From contig MFIU01000001.1 in the NCBI GenBank assembly GCA_001778985.1, positions 126,001 to 190,000 of the forward strand: DNA of 64,000 nt, given 5' to 3'. The notes beneath the pieces were generated by a model that saw only the letters and a list, made by a program, of their open reading frames with translations, ran no database searches and was not told where the DNA came from. The stretch's first letter is position 1. Each line of letters begins with the position of its first letter. Below are positions 5,511-64,000 of the stretch, piece after piece. Position numbers and translations under genes: made by a program. This stretch comes from Candidatus Giovannonibacteria bacterium RIFOXYD1_FULL_48_21 (GTDB taxonomy: Bacteria; Patescibacteriota; Minisyncoccia; JACPKW01; UBA11713).

Positions 5511-5678
5511 ATGAAGAAAGAACAACTAGAGGAAGAGTTATTTTTGTTGCCTCCGGATGATAAAGAGAAGAGTTTGAAACGCATCCAAAAAGCAGCGCGG
5601 CGGAGGCATAAGTCTTCGAGATGGATAAGAGACCTTTCGATCCTGAAAGCCAAGTTGGATCGGAAGAAATCCAACTGA
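5511..5678 (+). CDS. small ORF (55 aa, basic)
   Basis: ATG 7 nt downstream of GGAGG; below the ORF-track length cut-off; no homology recognised. Confidence 0.25.
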   Translation: MKKEQLEEELFLLPPDDKEKSLKRIQKAARRRHKSSRWIRDLSILKAKLDRKKSN

Positions 5679-5722
5679 CTGAAAGACTTGGCAAATTCAG
5701 AAGATTGGCATAGGATATCCCT

Positions 5723-6124
5723 ATGCCATCTTTGTTTCCGGACCTTTTTGTTTTCGAACAATTCGCTCCACTGATTTTACGCCTGGTCTTGGGTGCGGTT
5801 TTTATAGTTCATGGCTATCCCAAGCTTTTCACTCAATTTGCCGAAACGGCCCAATTTTTTGAAGCCGTAAATATCAGGCCCGCGAAGTTCTTGGTTTTTG
5901 TCGTGGGTATTGTTGAATTTTTCGGCGGAATATTTTTGGTCGCTGGTTTTTTGACCCAGCTTGTCGCGGCCTTGATTGCGATAGATATGATGGTCGCGAT
6001 TTGGAAAGTAAAATTTCGACAAGGTTTTTTCGGAGGTTATGAGTTTGATTTGGCGCTTCTGGCCATGGCGGTTTCTTTAATATTGCTGGGTCCTGGAAAA
6101 TTTTCCTTAGATTTGCCATTTTAG
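5723..6124 (+). CDS. DoxX-family membrane protein
   Basis: FAPLILRLVLGAVFIVHGYPKLF...; four-TM, 133 aa DoxX pattern. Confidence 0.7.
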   Translation: MPSLFPDLFVFEQFAPLILRLVLGAVFIVHGYPKLFTQFAETAQFFEAVNIRPAKFLVFVVGIVEFFGGIFLVAGFLTQLVAALIAIDMMVAIWKVKFRQGFFGGYEFDLALLAMAVSLILLGPGKFSLDLPF

Positions 6125-6625: not shown

Positions 6626-6697
6626 GTCCCCATAGCTTAACGGATAAAGTACAGCCCTCCGAAGGCTGGGATCGAGGTTCAATTCCTCGTGGGGACG
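6626..6697 (+). tRNA. tRNA-Arg (anticodon CCG)
   Basis: manual cloverleaf: acceptor GTCCCCA/TGGGGAC, D-stem GCTT/AAGT, anticodon stem CAGCC/GGCTG with loop CTCCGAA, T-arm CGAGG-TTCAATT-CCTCG; 72 nt. Confidence 0.7.
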
Positions 6698-6698
6698 C

Positions 6699-6769
6699 CG
6701 GGCTGTAGTATAGCGGTAGTACACAAGGCTGGGGGTCTTGTAGCCGGGGTCCGACTCCCCGCAGCCCGA
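6699..6769 (+). tRNA. tRNA-Pro (anticodon GGG)
   Basis: acceptor CGGGCTG/CAGCCCG, anticodon stem CAAGG/TCTTG with loop CTGGGGG (G37), T-arm CGGGG-TCCGACT-CCCCG; begins 1 nt after tRNA-Arg. Confidence 0.65.
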
Positions 6770-6781
6770 CACTTCGACTTT

Positions 6782-9801: not shown

Positions 9802-10542
9802 ATGAAAGATTTCGGTCTTCTTAAGAATCAAGCTTTAAATCTAAGAAAAAAAGGGTTAAGTTATAGTGAAATCCGTAGTAAGATTAAAGTTTCAAAAAGC
9901 ACTTTAAGCATGTGGCTAAAGGGCGTGAAGCTGAAACCTGAACACCGAGCGAGATTATATACTAAGCAAATTCAAATACTTTCACGCGGCCCACAAAGCC
10001 AAAAGGAAAGGAGGGCGAGAGAAATTAAAGAAATTGTAAAAGAAGCAAGCAATGAGATTAAACTTCCCCTCTCGTCCGAAGCCCACCGTCTTATTGGGGT
10101 GGGGTTATACTGGGCGGAAGGATCGAAAGGCAAAATGTTTCAAATAACGAATTCTGACCCGTATTTAATTCTTTTCATGGTGCGGTGGATAGAAAAGATT
10201 TTTAGTATTTCTGTAGAAACTTTAAGAGCACGGCTGAATATTTACCCCCAGCAGGGCGATCTGAAAATTAAGAAATTCTGGTCGAATCTTACAGGGATTC
10301 CGTTGAAAAATTTTAAAAAAAGTTATATAAAGCCGCTTAGTACAGGATATAAGAAGAATAATCTTTATTATGGGACAATTAGGATCGAAGTTCCTAAAAG
10401 TGCCAACTTTGTTTGTAAAACGTTCGGATGGGTTCAAGGACTATTGGCGGATATTAAGCCGCAAGTTGATTTTGTTCAAAAGAAATGGCGTCATCTTTCA
10501 AAAGTGCCCCGGCCTGTGAATTTAAATCCCCCCATAGCTTAA
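9802..10542 (+). CDS. LAGLIDADG-like homing-endonuclease-fold protein with N-terminal HTH
   Basis: LIGVGLYWAEGSKG fits the single LAGLIDADG motif; N-terminus LRKKGLSYSEIRSKIKVSKSTLSMWLKG is HTH-like; start chosen at the second Met (ORF opens at 9724); the stop codon lies inside tRNA-Lys. Confidence 0.4.
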   Translation: MKDFGLLKNQALNLRKKGLSYSEIRSKIKVSKSTLSMWLKGVKLKPEHRARLYTKQIQILSRGPQSQKERRAREIKEIVKEASNEIKLPLSSEAHRLIGVGLYWAEGSKGKMFQITNSDPYLILFMVRWIEKIFSISVETLRARLNIYPQQGDLKIKKFWSNLTGIPLKNFKKSYIKPLSTGYKKNNLYYGTIRIEVPKSANFVCKTFGWVQGLLADIKPQVDFVQKKWRHLSKVPRPVNLNPPIA

Positions 10543-10599
10543 CGGTAAAGCACCCGCCTCTTAAGCGGTGAGTTCTAGGTTCAAATCCTAGTGGGGGGA
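10528..10599 (+). tRNA. tRNA-Lys (anticodon CTT)
   Basis: acceptor CCCCCCA/TGGGGGG, D-stem GCTT/AAGC, anticodon loop CTCTTAA, T-arm CTAGG-TTCAAAT-CCTAG. Confidence 0.65.
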
Positions 10600-10633
10600 C
10601 AAACAACAACATTCGGTGTAAAATATATACACC

Positions 10634-13630: not shown

Positions 13631-14053
13631 GTGCCTACGATTCAGCAATTAATAAAAAAGGGGCGAAAGCCCATCCATAAAAAATCCAAAGCCGTGGCCC
13701 TGGCCAGGGGTTTTAATCTTTTGAAAAACCGCCCGGTTTTATACCCCTCGCCCTTCAAGCGCGGAGTTTGCCTAAAAGTTTTTACCACCACGCCCAAAAA
13801 GCCGAACTCGGCCTTGCGCAAAGTCGCGCGGGTCCGGCTTACGAACGGCATGGAGGTTACGGCCTACATCCCCGGCGAAGGCCACAATCTTCAGGAGCAC
13901 TCCGTGGTCATGATTCGGGGCGGAAGGGTGAAAGATTTGCCGGGGGTTCGCTACCACATTGTCCGCGGGGTTTTAGACACCGGGGGCGTGGAAAATAGAA
14001 AACAGCAAAGAAGTAAATACGGCACCAAACAGCCGCAAGAGAAAAATGCGTAG
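13631..14053 (+). CDS. rpsL: 30S ribosomal protein S12
   Basis: [12 protein letters not shown]...[19 protein letters not shown]. Confidence 0.95.
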
Positions 14054-14516
14054 GAAAGCCAGGAGAAAATTTTCCAGAAGTCCTGACCCGTTGTACCAAT
14101 CCAAGCTGGTCGAACAGCTGACGAATTACGTGATGCATGACGGCAAAAAAGCCACGGCCCGAAAAGTGGTCTGGGGCGCTTTTGAAATTTTAAAAACAAA
14201 AACCAAAAACAGCGAGCCGCTTAGAGTTTTGGAAGAAGCGGTGAAAAACGCCTCGCCGGTTTTGGAAGTTCGCTCCCGACGGGTCGGCGGCGCCACTTAC
14301 CAGGTGCCGCGGGAAGTTCGGCCGGAGCGGAGAGTGACTTTGGCCTTTCGCTGGATTATCGGAGCGGCGCGCGCCAAAAAAGGAAAGCCTATGGCTGAAA
14401 AATTATCAGAAGAAATCTTGGCGGCCTCCAAGAACGAAGGCGCGGCCATTAAGAAAAAAGAAGACACCCATAAGATGGCCGAGGCCAACCGCGCCTTCGC
14501 CCACTTCGCCTGGTAA
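14046..14516 (+). CDS. rpsG: 30S ribosomal protein S7
   Basis: [35 protein letters not shown]. Confidence 0.95.
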
Positions 14517-14519
14517 TTT

Positions 14520-16613
14520 ATGCCTAGAGGTTATCCTATTGAGCGAACTCGGGATATCGGCATTATTGCCCACATTGACGCCGGAAAAACCACGGTTTCC
14601 GAGCGGATTTTATTTTACACCGGGGTTTCGCACAAAATCGGTGAGGTGCATGAGGGCGAGGCGATTATGGACTGGATGGAGCAGGAGCGGGAGCGCGGGA
14701 TTACTATTACCGCCGCGGCCACGACCTGCTTTTGGACGCCGACCCACGGCGGGAGCGAAGAGCATCGCATCAATATTATCGATACTCCCGGCCACATTGA
14801 TTTCACGGTGGAGGTTCAGCGCTCTTTGAGAGTTTTGGACGGCGGGGTGGTGGTTTTTGACGGGGTGGCCGGAGTGGAGCCCCAGTCGGAAACCGTCTGG
14901 CGGCAAGCCGATAAATATAAAGTTCCCAGAATCTGTTTCATCAACAAACTTGACCGCTTGGGCGCTTCTTTTGAAAATTCATTGAAGTCCATTCAAGAAA
15001 GATTGACGCCGAACGCCGTGCCGGTGACTATTCCCATCGGGCTCGAATCCAATTTTGAAGGGATAATCGACCTTTTCAGAAGTAAGGCGATTTATTTCGA
15101 AGGCGAGCACGGCGAGAAAATGGCGGAAAAAGAAATCCCGGACCAGATGAAAGCCCAAGCTGAAAAGTGGCGGCATAATTTAATTGAGAAGATTTCCGAG
15201 ACCGAGGACGAGCTCACCCAGATGTATTTGGAAGGGAGGGAAGTTCCGGTTGAGAGGTTGCGCCAAGCTCTTAGAAAAGCTTCTCTTTCCTATCAGTTGG
15301 TTCCGGTTTTCTGCGGCTCGGCCCTCAAGAACAAGGGCGTGCAGCTTTTGCTCGACGGCGTGGTTGATTATCTTCCTAGTCCGGCTGACCTGCCGCCGGT
15401 CAAAGGTCTCGATCCAAAAACCGGGGAAGAAATTTCCCGCGAACCGTCTGACGCCGCGCCTTTCGCGGCCCTGGCTTTCAAACTTCAGTCTGACCCTTAC
15501 GTTGGCCAGCTGACTTTTTTTAGAGTCTATTCCGGAATGCTAAAGGCCGGTTCCTACGTTCTTAATTCCGCTACCGGGGACCAGGAACGGGTGGGACGGA
15601 TTTTAAGACTGCACGCCAACCATCGCGAAGAGGTCAAAGAAATTTTTGCGGGGGAGATTGGGGCGGCGGTCGGACTTAAGAACACAAAAACTGGCGATAC
15701 GCTTTCTGATCCGGAAGAGCCCATTCGGCTCGAGAAAATTGAATTTCCCGAGCCGGTAGTCGCGATGCGGATTGAACCCAAAACCAAACAGGACCAGGAG
15801 CGGATGGGCCTGGCCTTGAAGAGGCTTTCCGAAGAAGACCCGACCTTTAGAATAAAATCCGACGAAGAAACTTTGGAAACCATCATCTCCGGCATGGGCG
15901 AATTGCACCTGGAGATTATCGTGGACCGGATGAAAAGAGAATTTAAGGTGGAGGCCAACGTGGGCCGGCCCCAGGTGGCCTATAAAGAGACCATAAGAAA
16001 CACCGCTGAGGCCGAAGGAAAATATATCCGGCAGTCGGGCGGCCGGGGGCAGTACGGCCACGTTTGGCTTAGAGTTGAACCCCAAGAGAGGGGAGCGGGC
16101 TACGAATTCGAAAACGCGATTCGCGGCGGAGTGATTCCGCAGGAGTTCGTGCCGGCGGCGGAGAAAGGAGTTAAAGAAGGTTTAGAAAAAGGAGTAGTCG
16201 CGGGTTATCCCTTGGTTGACATTAAGGTCACGCTTTACGACGGCTCATACCATGAAGTGGACTCTTCGGAGATCGCGTTCAAAATCGCTTCCTCCATCGC
16301 TCTGCAGGAGGCCGCTAAAAGAGCCAAGCCGGTTTTGCTCGAACCCGTCATGAAAGTCGAGGTGATAGTTCCGGATAAATTCATGGGCGACGTGACCGGC
16401 GACCTCAATTCCAAGCGCGCCCGGATTGAACAGATTTCCGACCGCGCAAATCTGAAAGTGATTGACGCCAAAGTGCCCCTTTCCGAAATGTTCGGCTACG
16501 TGACTAAACTTCGGAGCATTACCGAGGGGCGAGCTTCCTATACTATGGAATTCGACCATTACGAAGAAGTCCCGGCCAATATCGCGGAGTTGATTAAAGA
16601 GGGGAAGAAATAA
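14520..16613 (+). CDS. fusA: elongation factor G
   Basis: [21 protein letters not shown], full 697-aa EF-G. Confidence 0.95.
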
Positions 16614-16622
16614 AAGTCGCTC

Positions 16623-16742
16623 GCTAGTTCCGCTTGAGACACAAATGCCGGCCAGCGCCGGCATTTTCTGGGATTGCTCGCGACTCCGATAACCATCGGA
16701 GACCGTGCTCGCTCGCAATCTATGGTCTCAAACGAAACTAGC
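16623..16742. repeat. nested inverted-repeat structure downstream of fusA
   Basis: outer IR GCTAGTTCCGCTTGAGAC / GTCTCAAACGAAACTAGC encloses a terminator hairpin and a second hairpin CTCCGAT-AACC-ATCGGAG. Confidence 0.35.
16643..16667 (+). terminator. rho-independent terminator after fusA
   Basis: AAATGCCGGC-CAGC-GCCGGCATTT followed by TTTTCT. Confidence 0.5.
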
Positions 16743-16810
16743 TCACTGGGCAGAAACGCCCTTTTTTATTTTTAGCGGATTTGCTATGCTTTTTTTAAAA
16801 GAGGTGTTCT

Positions 16811-17239
16811 ATGATTAGATCATTTTTCGCGCATCTTGCGGCAATGTCGCCCAAAGATTTCTGGTTGGGTATGGTCGGAATATTGGGTCTCGGTGGATTC
16901 GTCATTATGGCCGTCACCGATGTCCTGAAAGAGTTTAAAAAGAAGATCGCCGCTGGTAGGTGGGACGTGAAGCCGAGTATGGTGGTCTACGGTCCAGATC
17001 GCGAAGTGAAAGCGAAGTATTTCGAGGCCGACGAGGCCACCGCGGGATACATCCCAGTTTTCCTGCTCGTCAAGATAGTGTTCGTTCTTTCGCTGGTATC
17101 TCTCATCACGGATTACTTCTACGGTATCGGTTTTCCGTTTCACCCGGTCTTCGCCGTCATCATGTTCTTTTTCTGCGGCGCCGTTCTCGTATTTATGTTT
17201 TTTGTAAACCGTTTCGAACGCAAACACACTACCGCGTAA
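16811..17239 (+). CDS. hypothetical membrane protein
   Basis: 142 aa, 3 TM helices; sits between fusA and tuf. Confidence 0.4.
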   Translation: MIRSFFAHLAAMSPKDFWLGMVGILGLGGFVIMAVTDVLKEFKKKIAAGRWDVKPSMVVYGPDREVKAKYFEADEATAGYIPVFLLVKIVFVLSLVSLITDYFYGIGFPFHPVFAVIMFFFCGAVLVFMFFVNRFERKHTTA

Positions 17240-17247
17240 AGCGCTGA

Positions 17248-17290
17248 AAGGGCACGTCCACTTCTTATGGAAACGGCCCTTTTTTGTTTT
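17248..17290. terminator. putative bidirectional terminator
   Basis: AAAGGGC...GCCCTTTTTTGTTTT between convergent genes. Confidence 0.4.
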
Positions 17291-17504
17291 AGAGAAGTTT
17301 TTTAAATTCGCCGTCGGTGAGTCCAGCGTCACGGATTATTCCCTTCAAGGTATAAGGATTCAATCTGCTATGTCTGGGAATGGTAATTTTCCTAGTTCCG
17401 TTTGTCATACCGATATGTTTCCTTCCCTGGGTTTTTGAAATCCAAAAACCAGCCTTTGTAAAAGCCTTGACGGCCAGATGAGAGGAGATGTCGGTGAAAA
17501 GCAT
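17289..17504 (-). CDS. hicA: HicA-family toxin (mRNA interferase)
   Basis: SSHLAVKAFTKAGFW...TNGTRKITIPRHS...LKGIIRDAGL typical HicA. Confidence 0.75.
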   Translation of the reverse strand: MLFTDISSHLAVKAFTKAGFWISKTQGRKHIGMTNGTRKITIPRHSRLNPYTLKGIIRDAGLTDGEFKKLL

Positions 17505-17704
17505 TATGCCAAGGCGACTTCCACCTCTCGCACTTCGGCTCCTTTGAGTTCTGCTTTCCCCATCTCTAGATAGGTAAAGATAGCGTCTTTTATATTATCG
17601 AGTGCCTCTTTTTGAGTTTCGCCTTGACTATGGCATCCCGGCAGGGCTGGAACGTGAATATCATAACCATATTTCGTTTTGCGAAGGATAACGGAGTATT
17701 TCAT
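17504..17704 (-). CDS. hicB: HicB-family antitoxin (UPF0150)
   Basis: KYGYDIHVPALPGCHSQGETQKEALDNIKDAI; 1-nt overlap with hicA. Confidence 0.75.
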   Translation of the reverse strand: MKYSVILRKTKYGYDIHVPALPGCHSQGETQKEALDNIKDAIFTYLEMGKAELKGAEVREVEVALA

Positions 17705-17822
17705 GCCTTAAGTATAGCACGGATATGTTGGGTTTCCAAGGGTATTGACGTTTTTTTATGCTTCGATTACCATATTAAATACACTTACAATTTAGTGGTT
17801 ATCGGTTAATTTTTTTGTTTTT

Positions 17823-19013
17823 ATGGCTAAATTTGAGAGGACCAAGCCCCACCTGAACGTGGGCACTATCGGACACGTTGACCACGGCAAAACTTCGCTG
17901 ACCGCGGCTATTTTGCATGTTATGAACCTGGCCGGAAAAAAGGTGAAGCTGGAGTCCGTGGACCAGATTGACAACGCTCCGGAAGAGCGCCAGCGCGGCA
18001 TCACCATTGCCCTTCATCACTCGGAGTACGAGACTGACAAGCGCCATTACGCCCACATCGACGCTCCGGGGCACGCGGACTACATTAAGAATATGATTAC
18101 CGGCGCGGCGCAGATGGATGGTGCCATTCTGGTGGTTTCAGCCTCCGACGGCCCCATGCCCCAGACTCGAGAGCACATTTTGCTCGCGCGCCAGGTAGGC
18201 GTTCCGGTGATTATCGTTTTTTTGAATAAAGTTGACACGGTGGATGACAAGGAATTGGTGGACTTGGTGGAAACCGAAGTGCGGGAACTTCTCAATAAAT
18301 ATGAATATCCCGGCGAGAAGACTCCGATTATCCGCGGCTCGGCGATGAAAGCGCTCGAAGCCAAATCGGCCGAGGACGAATGGGCCAAGCCGATTTTGGA
18401 ACTCATGAAAACTTTGGATGAATACATTCCGGAGCCGGTTCGGGAAATCGACAAACCTTTCTTGATGCCGATTGAAGACGTCTTCTCGATTGAAGGCCGA
18501 GGCACGGTGGTGACCGGACGCGCGGAGCGTGGCAAAATTAAGCTGAACGACGAGGTTGAAATTGTGGGACTGAAACCCACCCAAAAAACCATCGTAACCG
18601 GCATTGAGATGTTCAATAAACAGCTGGACGAGGGCCTGGCCGGAGACAACGCCGGAATTCTTTTGCGCGGCGTTAAAAAAGAGGACGTGGAACGCGGCCA
18701 GGTGATAGCCAAACCAGGTTCGATTACCCCCCATACGGATTTCGAATCTGAGGTTTACATCCTGACCAAAGAGGAGGGAGGCAGGCATACTCCCTTTTTT
18801 ACCGGCTATAAACCCCAGTTTTATATCCGCACCACGGACGTGACCGGCGAGGTGACGCTGGCCGAGGGGATTGAAATGGTCATGCCCGGCGATACGATTC
18901 AGTTCACAGTGAAACTGATTGCGCCGGTGGCGCTCGAAGAGAAACAGCGCTTCGCGATCCGCGAGGGCGGCAAGACCGTGGGAGCCGGGGTGGTGACCAA
19001 AATTATCAAATAA
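17823..19013 (+). CDS. tuf: elongation factor Tu
   Basis: [26 protein letters not shown]. Confidence 0.95.
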
Positions 19014-52975: not shown

Positions 52976-53006
52976 ATAGTTTAATTATAGAGTAATTGAA
53001 TTTTGT

Positions 53007-53276
53007 TGTGGAGATGGCGGGAATTGAACCCGCGTCAGAAGAAATTTTGAACCGCGGTTGACAGGCTTAAAACTTTTGAAGGTTTTTCTCGCTTATAACA
53101 CCCGCGACCCTCTAGCGAGAATCAAGGACGGATGCTTACACAGACTTAATTAAGCAACTGCGTAAGAAGGTTGGAATAAGTTTGCACTTACTACATTGAG
53201 AGATTTTTAAGAGCTAACTCTCGTCCTCTGCCTGAGCGCCTGCTCAAACTTTTCCTCCTCGAGGCCGATCATCCCC
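53007..53276 (-). ncRNA. ssrA: tmRNA (ssrA), about 270 nt
   Basis: 5' GGGGATG pairs with 3' CATCTCC-A (G3:U wobble), T-arm GCGGG-TTCAATT-CCCGC, tag reading frame GCA AAC TTA TTC CAA CCT TCT TAC GCA GTT GCT TAA (ANLFQPSYAVA*) at 53150-53185. Confidence 0.65.
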
Positions 53277-63975: not shown

Positions 63976-64000
63976 ATGACGCGCTTACCGTTTCTTTCCG
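63976..64000 (+). CDS. possible start of the HicA partner (truncated by the window end)
   Basis: ATG 3 nt after the hicB stop, MTRLPFLS... Confidence 0.25.

Follow-up and report, generated by a model that had tools for sequence, protein, structure and literature searches.

What fills the 1.2 kb between fusA and tuf in the str operon of Candidatus Giovannonibacteria bacterium RIFOXYD1_FULL_48_21, and did it arrive as one piece? We addressed this question in a stretch of 64,000 nt from contig MFIU01000001.1, called the window throughout and numbered from its first letter. Its fusA-tuf spacer holds a structured element enclosed by an inverted repeat, a gene for a small membrane protein and a hicBA toxin-antitoxin cassette. 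A first-pass annotation of the sequence had put the separation at about 1.2 kb, in agreement with the measured 1,209 bp, and had read the three parts together as a small insertion island in a core operon. Comparison with related loci makes it rather likely that the spacer is instead a mosaic of three independent layers, placed in an insertion-tolerant position. The island itself is ordinary, a toxin-antitoxin cassette and a small membrane gene in a cargo-tolerant spacer, and what is new is the family to which the structured element belongs.

The layers come apart when the window is aligned with relatives. Metagenomes were scanned with the 18-mer that forms the terminus of the inverted repeat, which returned 20 matches; 19 of these share the 18-mer alone and are due to chance, so the search for further copies of the terminus that the annotation had proposed gave no related ones beyond a single homologous locus, L107 (the loci compared carry L numbers). 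This locus comes from the same sample as one of the contigs identical to the window locus. In L107 the fusA stop codon is followed by the element, by the short hairpin T2 (GGGTAGAAGCGCCCTTTTTT) and then directly by GGGTATTGAC, the tuf promoter and tuf; homology with the window stops within the T-run of T2, and window positions 16771-17738 (968 bp, comprising the membrane gene and hicBA) have no counterpart. L109 presents fusA, element, membrane gene, terminator, tuf promoter and tuf, with no hicBA. Homology of the window with both loci resumes at 17739 (GGGTATTGAC), which is the right edge of the lineage-specific DNA. A third locus, L012, has the element with other cargo. Because the element lies in the same place in the cargo-less L107, and also in L109 and L012, it is not a part or the terminus of an insertion. 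The three components thus have different histories, which makes the spacer a mosaic rather than one island.

More specifically, hicBA is found in none of ten other Giovannonibacteria loci, and it is absent from both L107 and L109, which have the rest of the spacer architecture in common with the window. By this comparison hicBA is the only part of the spacer specific to the window lineage. The membrane gene occupies the same position in L109 and is therefore a lineage-restricted resident older than the window lineage; its absence from L107 is, as read from the alignments, either a loss or a gene never gained. The cargo is not bounded by an integrase or recombinase gene, by terminal inverted repeats or by a target duplication, and its ends at 16771 and 17738 show no terminal inverted or direct repeats. 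The sole similarity between the two ends, TGCTATRCT, corresponds to two inward-facing extended -10 promoters, and we rejected it as a mark of insertion.

That the inverted-repeat element, the membrane gene and hicBA form one island in the str operon, with the 18-bp repeat as its terminus, agrees with their contiguity between fusA and tuf and with the 166-bp spacer of L084, the closest relative by EF-G that was sampled, but is contradicted by L107 (no cargo), L109 (no hicBA) and L012 (entirely different cargo). The element lies on one side only, the far end of the cargo having no copy of it, and no recombinase gene is present. We consider this model hardly credible; what stands of it is the accessory DNA in the operon and the lineage-specificity of hicBA. 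In a second alternative the window lineage received no insertion at all: the complete arrangement would be ancestral, and L107 and L109 would be deletion derivatives. Here lies a point against the mosaic, as window, L107 and L109 are about equidistant and insertion versus deletion in L107 is therefore not polarised for the membrane gene. This gene is common to the window and L109, so L107 plausibly lost it, and the 77%-identical terminator repeats around it could mediate a deletion. For hicBA, however, an ancestral state is opposed by its absence from all ten other loci, by a HicB that is the single member of its 90% identity cluster and by a GC content of 0.43-0.45, against 0.53-0.54 in fusA and tuf and 0.48 in the window. 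Furthermore, the cassette (~17292-17738, ~450 bp) fits exactly between the bidirectional terminator and the -35 box of tuf. An ancestral arrangement is accordingly improbable, and the mosaic of three layers is preferred.

The element is the layer common to all these comparisons. In the window, individual folds and the covariance models described below place it immediately behind fusA. The annotation had noted an 18-bp outer inverted repeat around two hairpins, and this is present: the repeat forms the closing helix P1, with arms at 16623-16640 and 16725-16742 (18 nt, 16 of them complementary). A junction strand ACA (J1/2) leads into P2, a 10-bp hairpin at 16643-16666 with the loop CAGC, and this is followed by the branched hairpin P3/P3a at 16670-16721, which contains an internal loop, UC/UC, and at 16702-16708 the conserved bulge ACCGUGC. 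The flanks read CGCUCG on the 5' side and CUCACU on the 3' side. A region of 180 nt folds far better than its shuffles (z = -5.3 on the plus strand and -7.8 on the minus strand). Allowing up to three mismatches, the 18-mer occurs in the 64-kb window at its two arms only (0.02 expected), and a search with filters off returned one copy of the element, which models R1-R3 score at 141-160 bits.

The inner hairpin had been taken for a terminator, a description that P2 does not bear out. It is not called by a consensus terminator scan, and its tail, AUUUUCU in the window, has no U-tract in the counterparts of L109 (GAGCCCUUGG) and L008. The P2 stem is wholly different in L109 and L008, yet the loop CAGC is kept. 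Because of the differing stem, the missing U-tract and the retained loop, P2 is not simply a terminator; a plain terminator needs no conserved loop of this kind. The T2 hairpin, on the 3' side of the element, is the probable terminator of fusA and the structured element as judged from its modelled fold, and was not called by the consensus scan, its stem being too short. Two tertiary or long-range contacts were considered and rejected. A pseudoknot between the ACCGUG bulge and an AUGGU junction strand pairs in the window and L107 and not in L109 or L008, and a 10-nt complementarity between the P3a loop (16686-16695) and the 5' untranslated region (UTR) of tuf (17796-17805) is absent in L107 and hence a matter of chance.

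Covariance models R1-R3 were built iteratively once the L109 copy had been found. They identify seven copies in six Patescibacteria genomes, namely one each in the window, L107, L109, L012 and L039 and two in L008, with scores of 35-144 bits (E 1e-4 to 1e-30). The diverged L109 copy lies right after the fusA stop (nhmmer E 1e-9), as does directly that of L012 (Paceibacter sp.). The copies in L008 lie directly after the rplC stop and in the rpsG-fusA spacer, and the one in L039 (Moraniibacteriota) between a terminator and the rpsL promoter. The element begins 0-10 nt past the fusA stop codon in four lineages, among them the distant L012, and past that of rplC in L008. All seven copies are in sense orientation to the neighbouring genes.

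Each copy folds alone into the same three-way junction of ~120-145 nt, with a closing helix of 16-23 bp in all seven. In the seven-sequence alignment, which was fitted to the model, 92% of the cells are paired, compared with 57% after shuffling and 35-45% with the partners slid; 40 of the 44 base pairs change on both sides, and none of 500 shuffles reaches the observed values. Conservation outside the helices is seen in the flanks GCGCUCG…CUCGCU, in the ACA(C) junction, in the CAGC loop of P2 and in a bulge of 7 nt, ACCRUGC. Copies from distant lineages share just 36-40% sequence identity yet keep the fold and these unpaired nucleotides. This pattern of covariation in the alignment indicates that the structure is under selection. 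Sequence searches with nhmmer and blastn against 83 loci matched only identical contigs, and L008, L012 and L039 were reached by the structure-aware models alone. Rfam 15, a check suggested with the annotation and run on window positions 16500-17900, gave no match at E up to 10, and the other six copies gave none at E up to 5, with both strands scanned in each case. As judged from these searches, the predicted three-way-junction elements of ~130 nt are a previously uncatalogued family in Patescibacteria.

Several known classes were compared with the element and set aside. By eye, the hammerhead core CUGAUGA…GAAA is absent, 5S rRNA and signal recognition particle RNA were rejected (the closing helix of 16-23 bp is far longer than 5S helix I), and no reverse-transcriptase gene was seen that would point to a retron RNA. 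An integron attC site was also rejected: the ends GCTAGTT…AACTAGC in the window are in the reverse arrangement of R''(RYYYAAC)…R'(GTTRRRY), the ends differ in other copies, and the spacer, to which this check was confined, holds no integron integrase. The element shares with structured noncoding RNA motifs of the Rfam type a compact three-way junction, widespread compensatory covariation and short single-stranded segments that are conserved. In contrast to riboswitches and leader RNAs, which have a consistent downstream gene, it has none. It is a ready candidate for a new noncoding RNA motif or a new type of structure-dependent mobile element, and the covariance model that now exists can be used on complete genomes and metatranscriptomes.

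The distribution of the copies bears on their mobility. The element is absent after fusA in seven Giovannonibacteria loci (L084-L087, L108, L110 and L111) and after rplC in L112-L115; the L008 relatives that lack it have L3 identities of 92%, 89% and 72%. Over 134 columns the copies in the window and L107 have 92% identity, with 95-98% in the core, compared with 73.5% at the 3' end of fusA and 79% in tuf, whereas the window and L109 copies are ~60% identical although the genes of L109 are as distant as those of L107. The two L008 copies, within 15 kb of each other, are 54% identical mutually, versus 36-40% to those of other genomes. Such an identity pattern among relatives suggests horizontal transfer. 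On the evidence of presence and absence the element is gained and lost, and it is probably exchanged between genomes. The motif CTCG…CTCG (CTCA in the window) flanks six of seven copies and is the same at unrelated sites, which makes it more likely a part of the element than a target duplication.

Two element-free relatives carry flank-like sequence right after the fusA stop. In L085 (8113-8150) both flanks, TCGCTCG and CTCGCTCT, stand 12 nt (AAAATTATATCT) apart, and in L087 (8113-8125) there is a single CTCACTGG, identical to the 3' flank in the window. From their sequence, L085 may retain a remnant of the element and L087 may be its empty site.

Small palindromic dispersed repeats and miniature inverted-repeat transposable elements (MITEs) are familiar from transcribed intergenic regions, including ERIC/IRU in enterobacteria, Correia elements in Neisseria, RUP and BOX in pneumococcus and the Rickettsia palindromic elements. 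The element resembles the ERIC, Correia, RUP and BOX type in its size (~120-145 nt) and terminal inverted repeats (16-23 bp), in its location in operon intergenic regions right after stop codons, and in its presence/absence polymorphism between close relatives, its two copies in L008 and identities that suggest lateral spread. It differs in its very low copy number (one in 64 kb). Unlike MITE-type repeats, it combines 36-40% identity with a fully conserved branched fold, which is more typical of functional RNAs, and has the constant flanks GCGCTCG…CTCGCT instead of variable target duplications. No transposase gene lies in the spacer, and no parent transposase is known for the element, although no search was aimed at an insertion sequence with matching ends.

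Other repeats were met in the same material. In L112 (2197-2466) a different insertion of ~170 nt bounded by inverted repeats (CCCGCACCAATTTT…AAAATTGGAACGGGG) follows rplD codon 8, which leaves the called start displaced, and L113 and L114, which are L008 relatives compared downstream of rplC, have a shorter hairpin at the same point of rplD. Other small palindromic elements therefore also colonise ribosomal-protein spacers. An unrelated metagenome contig, L091 (1290-1507), contains a tandem array with a 32-nt period, each unit of which holds the 18-mer of the repeat arm (GCTAGTTTCGCTTGAGAC); as the array has no other similarity to the element, this is probably a coincidence.

How might the element act? 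We propose a dispersed noncoding element that depends on its structure and would be transcribed together with the host operon; in the window it would sit in the fusA 3' UTR, ended by T2. A functional RNA read from the sense strand is a serious possibility, though one we put short of an even chance; that it is a MITE-like mobile element whose fold would serve its own propagation is conceivable, with somewhat more doubt attached. Only tentatively do we advance a combination of the two, a new class of functional structured RNA that would be specific to Patescibacteria, spread horizontally and lodge in translation-gene operons. If true, the element (GCGCUCG-P1-ACA-P2[CAGC]-P3[ACCRUGC bulge]-P1'-CUCGCU) would at once be mobile and function as an RNA, and the class could be protein-binding or catalytic. 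A number of observations weigh against these readings. A single copy in the 64-kb window is low for a MITE, and the base-pair counts come from alignments fitted to the model. As every locus searched had fusA or rplC at its centre, the apparent tie to translation operons carries an ascertainment bias. The two strands give conflicting signals. In favour of the plus strand are the sense orientation of all seven copies and a promoter on that strand at the L039 copy. In five of five copies tested, on the other hand, the minus strand has the better fold by 7-13 kcal/mol (minus/plus, -72.3/-59.4, -65.2/-58.0, -48.6/-39.3, -73.9/-62.7 and -59.1/-51.0 kcal/mol), and on it the conserved UC/UC loops turn into tandem G·A pairs. 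With RNAalifold the minus strand comes to -66.2 and the plus strand to -55.0. A strand test by G·U against A·C pairs is not decisive, since on an identical pair set the two come out almost even (6/8 for the plus strand, equal to 8/6 for the minus strand).

Two narrower readings of the element were also weighed. As a purely cis-acting sense RNA of its host operon, vertically inherited, repeatedly lost and not mobile, it would serve as a 3'-UTR or intercistronic stabiliser, a processing site, a terminator or a leader for the downstream membrane gene. The sense orientation of seven out of seven copies, the start 0-10 nt past the stop of fusA (four lineages) or rplC (L008), the T-rich terminator 3' of the element in the window and L107, and the homologous membrane genes that follow it in the window and L109 all speak for such a role. 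Vertical descent, however, sits poorly with incongruent identities (~95% between window and L107, ~60% to L109, at equal host divergence), with two paralogous L008 copies at unrelated spacers and with the absence of the element from very close relatives of L008. The L039 copy, which has an 11/12 sigma-70-like promoter just upstream on the plus strand, lies after a terminator and before the rpsL promoter; with a terminator preceding it and a promoter of its own, it is not a 3' UTR. On the plus strand, moreover, the internal loops with the highest conservation consist of U·C/C·U mismatches. The downstream genes vary by copy (tuf, rplD, an antisense open reading frame (ORF), rpsL and unrelated cargo), and the ORF downstream in L012, tried as a homologue of the membrane gene, shows no homology to it. 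We hold this purely cis-acting role to be rather doubtful. Read from the minus strand, the element would run antisense to the translation genes beside it, either as the gene of a small RNA or as a single strand that folds. Such a product would have the more stable fold in all five copies, with RNAalifold in agreement; the conserved flanks and the P3 internal loop would become tandem sheared G·A pairs closed by G-C, and a U-rich tail follows the closing helix on this strand in the window, L109 and the second L008 copy (L008b). Still, the near-even G·U/A·C balance lends it nothing, no minus-strand promoter was detected beside the window copy, the strong promoter at the L039 copy faces the other way, and transcription would collide head-on with highly expressed operons. 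A minus-strand RNA is on balance unlikely.

The spacer that holds element and cargo is hypervariable in Patescibacteria. We fetched 80 loci via EF-G from species-representative genomes and measured the fusA-tuf distance. That tuf directly follows fusA, as the annotation took to be normal, is true of 13 ordinary (non-Patescibacteria) bacteria, with spacers of 22-138 bp, and fails in this lineage, where the distance at 49 Patescibacteria-type loci spans 79-4,533 bp (median ~540). Ten Giovannonibacteria loci, whose EF-G is 79-83% identical to that of the window, have ten different spacer contents. The spacer is empty in L084; it carries four small genes, one of them PaaX-like, in L085, a 234-aa protein and a helix-turn-helix protein in L086, a glyoxalase and others in L087, an M78 peptidase pair in L108, a 47-aa ORF in L110, and bAvd with five small ORFs in L111. 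bAvd is an accessory of diversity-generating retroelements. In all these loci tuf keeps its own promoter (TTGAC-N17--10). Because the cargo differs locus by locus while the tuf promoter stays conserved, the fusA-tuf spacer is a cargo hotspot of the lineage, of which the 1.2-kb filling in the window is a typical case. With fusA transcription ending at local hairpins and tuf driven by a private promoter, inserted DNA would spare the expression of both genes, which would be why the site tolerates cargo.

Integration hotspots and variable islets between conserved core genes are a general concept. The spacer is similar to them in its conserved flanking genes, fusA and tuf, and in cargo that differs per species and often consists of toxin-antitoxin or defence-like small genes. 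It differs in lying within the normally compact str/S10 cluster of translation genes, and its cargo is mostly one to six small genes without integrases or tRNA attachment sites. Spacers of the str/S10 cluster are hotspots for species-specific accessory genes in the ultra-small, otherwise streamlined Patescibacteria, and bear on how these bacteria acquire and try out new genes.

Further interrupted junctions were seen within str operons. In L111 (3846-4909 and 7324-9642) the operon is also split at rpsG-fusA, where ORFs of 69 aa and 178 aa stand together with a HigB-like toxin, in addition to its fusA-tuf spacer with bAvd. The rpsG-fusA junction of L008 is another, with an 880-bp spacer that contains the second element copy, further hairpins and an antisense ORF (L008:5124-5297 and 5560-5880, minus strand). 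In many Patescibacteria, moreover, a gene lying shortly before tuf and in the same orientation encodes a small acidic protein. The N-terminus of this protein is Phd/YefM antitoxin-like (..KKTGDRIIV.D....P.VIL.L.EYE.L..), its C-terminal end is YFEPVE or YLEPVE, and its best match to Pfam PF02604 remains below threshold (26.1 bits, cut-off 29.8). A partner toxin is not evident, and the window holds no homologue.

The annotation's description of a 142-aa membrane protein on the plus strand is borne out by an ORF with three hydrophobic segments (Table 1). It is preceded by an AGAGG ribosome-binding site, and its coding score, 0.18, falls among those of real genes. It belongs to no Pfam, NCBIfam or PADLOC family. 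At first the gene passed for an orphan, as a word-indexed search returned self matches only; this was overturned by an exhaustive phmmer search of 1.84e9 proteins, in which P0246 matches it with E 4.6e-6 and 33% identity. P0246 is exactly the ORF at L109:5381-5755 (tblastn E 8e-9), which follows the element between fusA and tuf, and the two proteins have a G-F-P-F-H-P motif in common. Terminator-like direct repeats, 77% identical (GAAACG(G)CCCTTTTTT…), bracket the gene at 16753-16782 and 17270-17299; a duplication could account for them, or they could be what the deletion in L107 acted on. TGCTATRMT, the extended -10 motif, is present five times in the window (0.65 expected), at 16782, 17711 (minus), 9707 (minus), 34997 and 48132. 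In L085, L086 and L087 it likewise stands ahead of the ORF that opens the cargo, and it is probably the preferred -10 element of the lineage.

The hicBA cassette runs convergently with the membrane gene into their common terminator, a hairpin with a fold of -20.6 kcal/mol on the plus strand, where it has a U6 tail, and -16.7 kcal/mol on the minus strand. The annotation was right about a hicB-hicA pair on the minus strand with a 1-nt overlap: hicB lies upstream of hicA on the same strand, the overlap reads TAATG, and both products match their Pfam families above the gathering score. The antitoxin-first order and a HicB without DNA-binding domain are both known in the family (PMC11594946). From the position of the promoter, the hicB mRNA is predicted to be nearly leaderless. 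HicA aligns to Streptococcus pneumoniae HicA 5yrz_B and to 1whz (E ~3.5e-3), and its His30 (G-R-K-H) pairs with the His of the G-S-H motif in 5yrz_B at the level of the phmmer alignment only; the catalytic His residues of the HicA family have been listed (PMC11594946). HicB aligns to TTHA1756 (2yzt) and HicB 6g1c (E 3e-4), which are stand-alone HicB-like proteins. Compared with characterised HicAB/HicBA modules (5yrz; TTHA1756 2yzt; 1whz), the pair is alike in both domains, the 1-nt overlap, the aligned His, the gene order and the short HicB, at low similarity (E ~3e-3 to 3e-4 against PDB entries), and differs in that no operator or DNA-binding domain is evident and the hicB mRNA is nearly leaderless.

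On this sequence-level evidence hicBA is an ordinary toxin-antitoxin insertion. It would act as a standard type II module, HicA being an RNase toxin neutralised by HicB, and would have arrived by illegitimate or homologous recombination rather than through a dedicated recombinase. The second hicB that the annotation had recorded at the window end is there, as a paralogue with the start of a hicA behind it; the two HicB proteins are 40% identical over 48 aa and are therefore paralogues, not the outcome of a recent duplication.

Table 1. Positions of the spacer features, their neighbours and related genes (window coordinates unless a locus is named)
Feature	Position	Strand	Basis and remarks
Three-way-junction element	16617-16749	+ (coordinates)	folds and covariance models R1-R3
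T2 hairpin	16748-16770	+	fold; GGGC-AGAAAC-GCCC, then T6
Extended -10 of membrane-protein gene	16782-16790	+	TGCTATGCT
Small membrane protein, 142 aa	16811-17239	+	three predicted transmembrane segments; G-F-P-F-H-P motif
Bidirectional terminator hairpin	17246-17291	both	common to the convergent membrane gene and hicBA
hicA, toxin, 71 aa	17289-17504	-	PF07927, 39.2 bits (cut-off 27), E 7.7e-10
hicB, antitoxin, 66 aa	17504-17704	-	PF15919, 36.5 bits (cut-off 27), E 6.2e-9; no DNA-binding domain
hicBA promoter	17711-17739	-	consensus scan; TTGGAA-17-TATACT with TG extension
tuf promoter	17745-17773	+	consensus scan; TTGACG-17-TACCAT; kept in relatives
fusA-tuf spacer	16614-17822		1,209 bp
rpsL	13631-14053		upstream in str region
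rpsG	14046-14516		between rpsL and fusA
fusA (EF-G, 697 aa)	14520-16613	+	seven Pfam EF-G/GTPase domains; upstream edge of spacer
tuf (EF-Tu, 396 aa)	17823-19013	+	full Pfam domain set; downstream edge of spacer
Second hicB, 73 aa	63751-63972	+	followed by start of hicA at 63977, cut by window end
Small acidic protein upstream of tuf	L006:8109-8336, L007:8107-8415, L031:3897-4319, L041:4447-4893, L048:9767-10108, L051:12149-12505		and ~15 more loci

The surroundings of the spacer are those of a translation-gene cluster, as tuf is followed by rpsJ, rplC and onward. The EF-G protein is 100% identical to that of Candidatus Giovannonibacteria metagenome-assembled genomes, and an identical locus is found on contigs of such genomes, including GCA_003510385.1 and JGI 3300025323. 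A blastn search of positions 16600-17830 against phage and plasmid collections gave no match in either. Elsewhere in the window, the only Rfam matches at gathering score are a tmRNA gene at 53006-53276 on the minus strand, with the tag ANLFQPSYAVA, and three tRNA genes (Arg-CCG, Pro-GGG and Lys-CUU) within 6626-6770 and 10528-10600.

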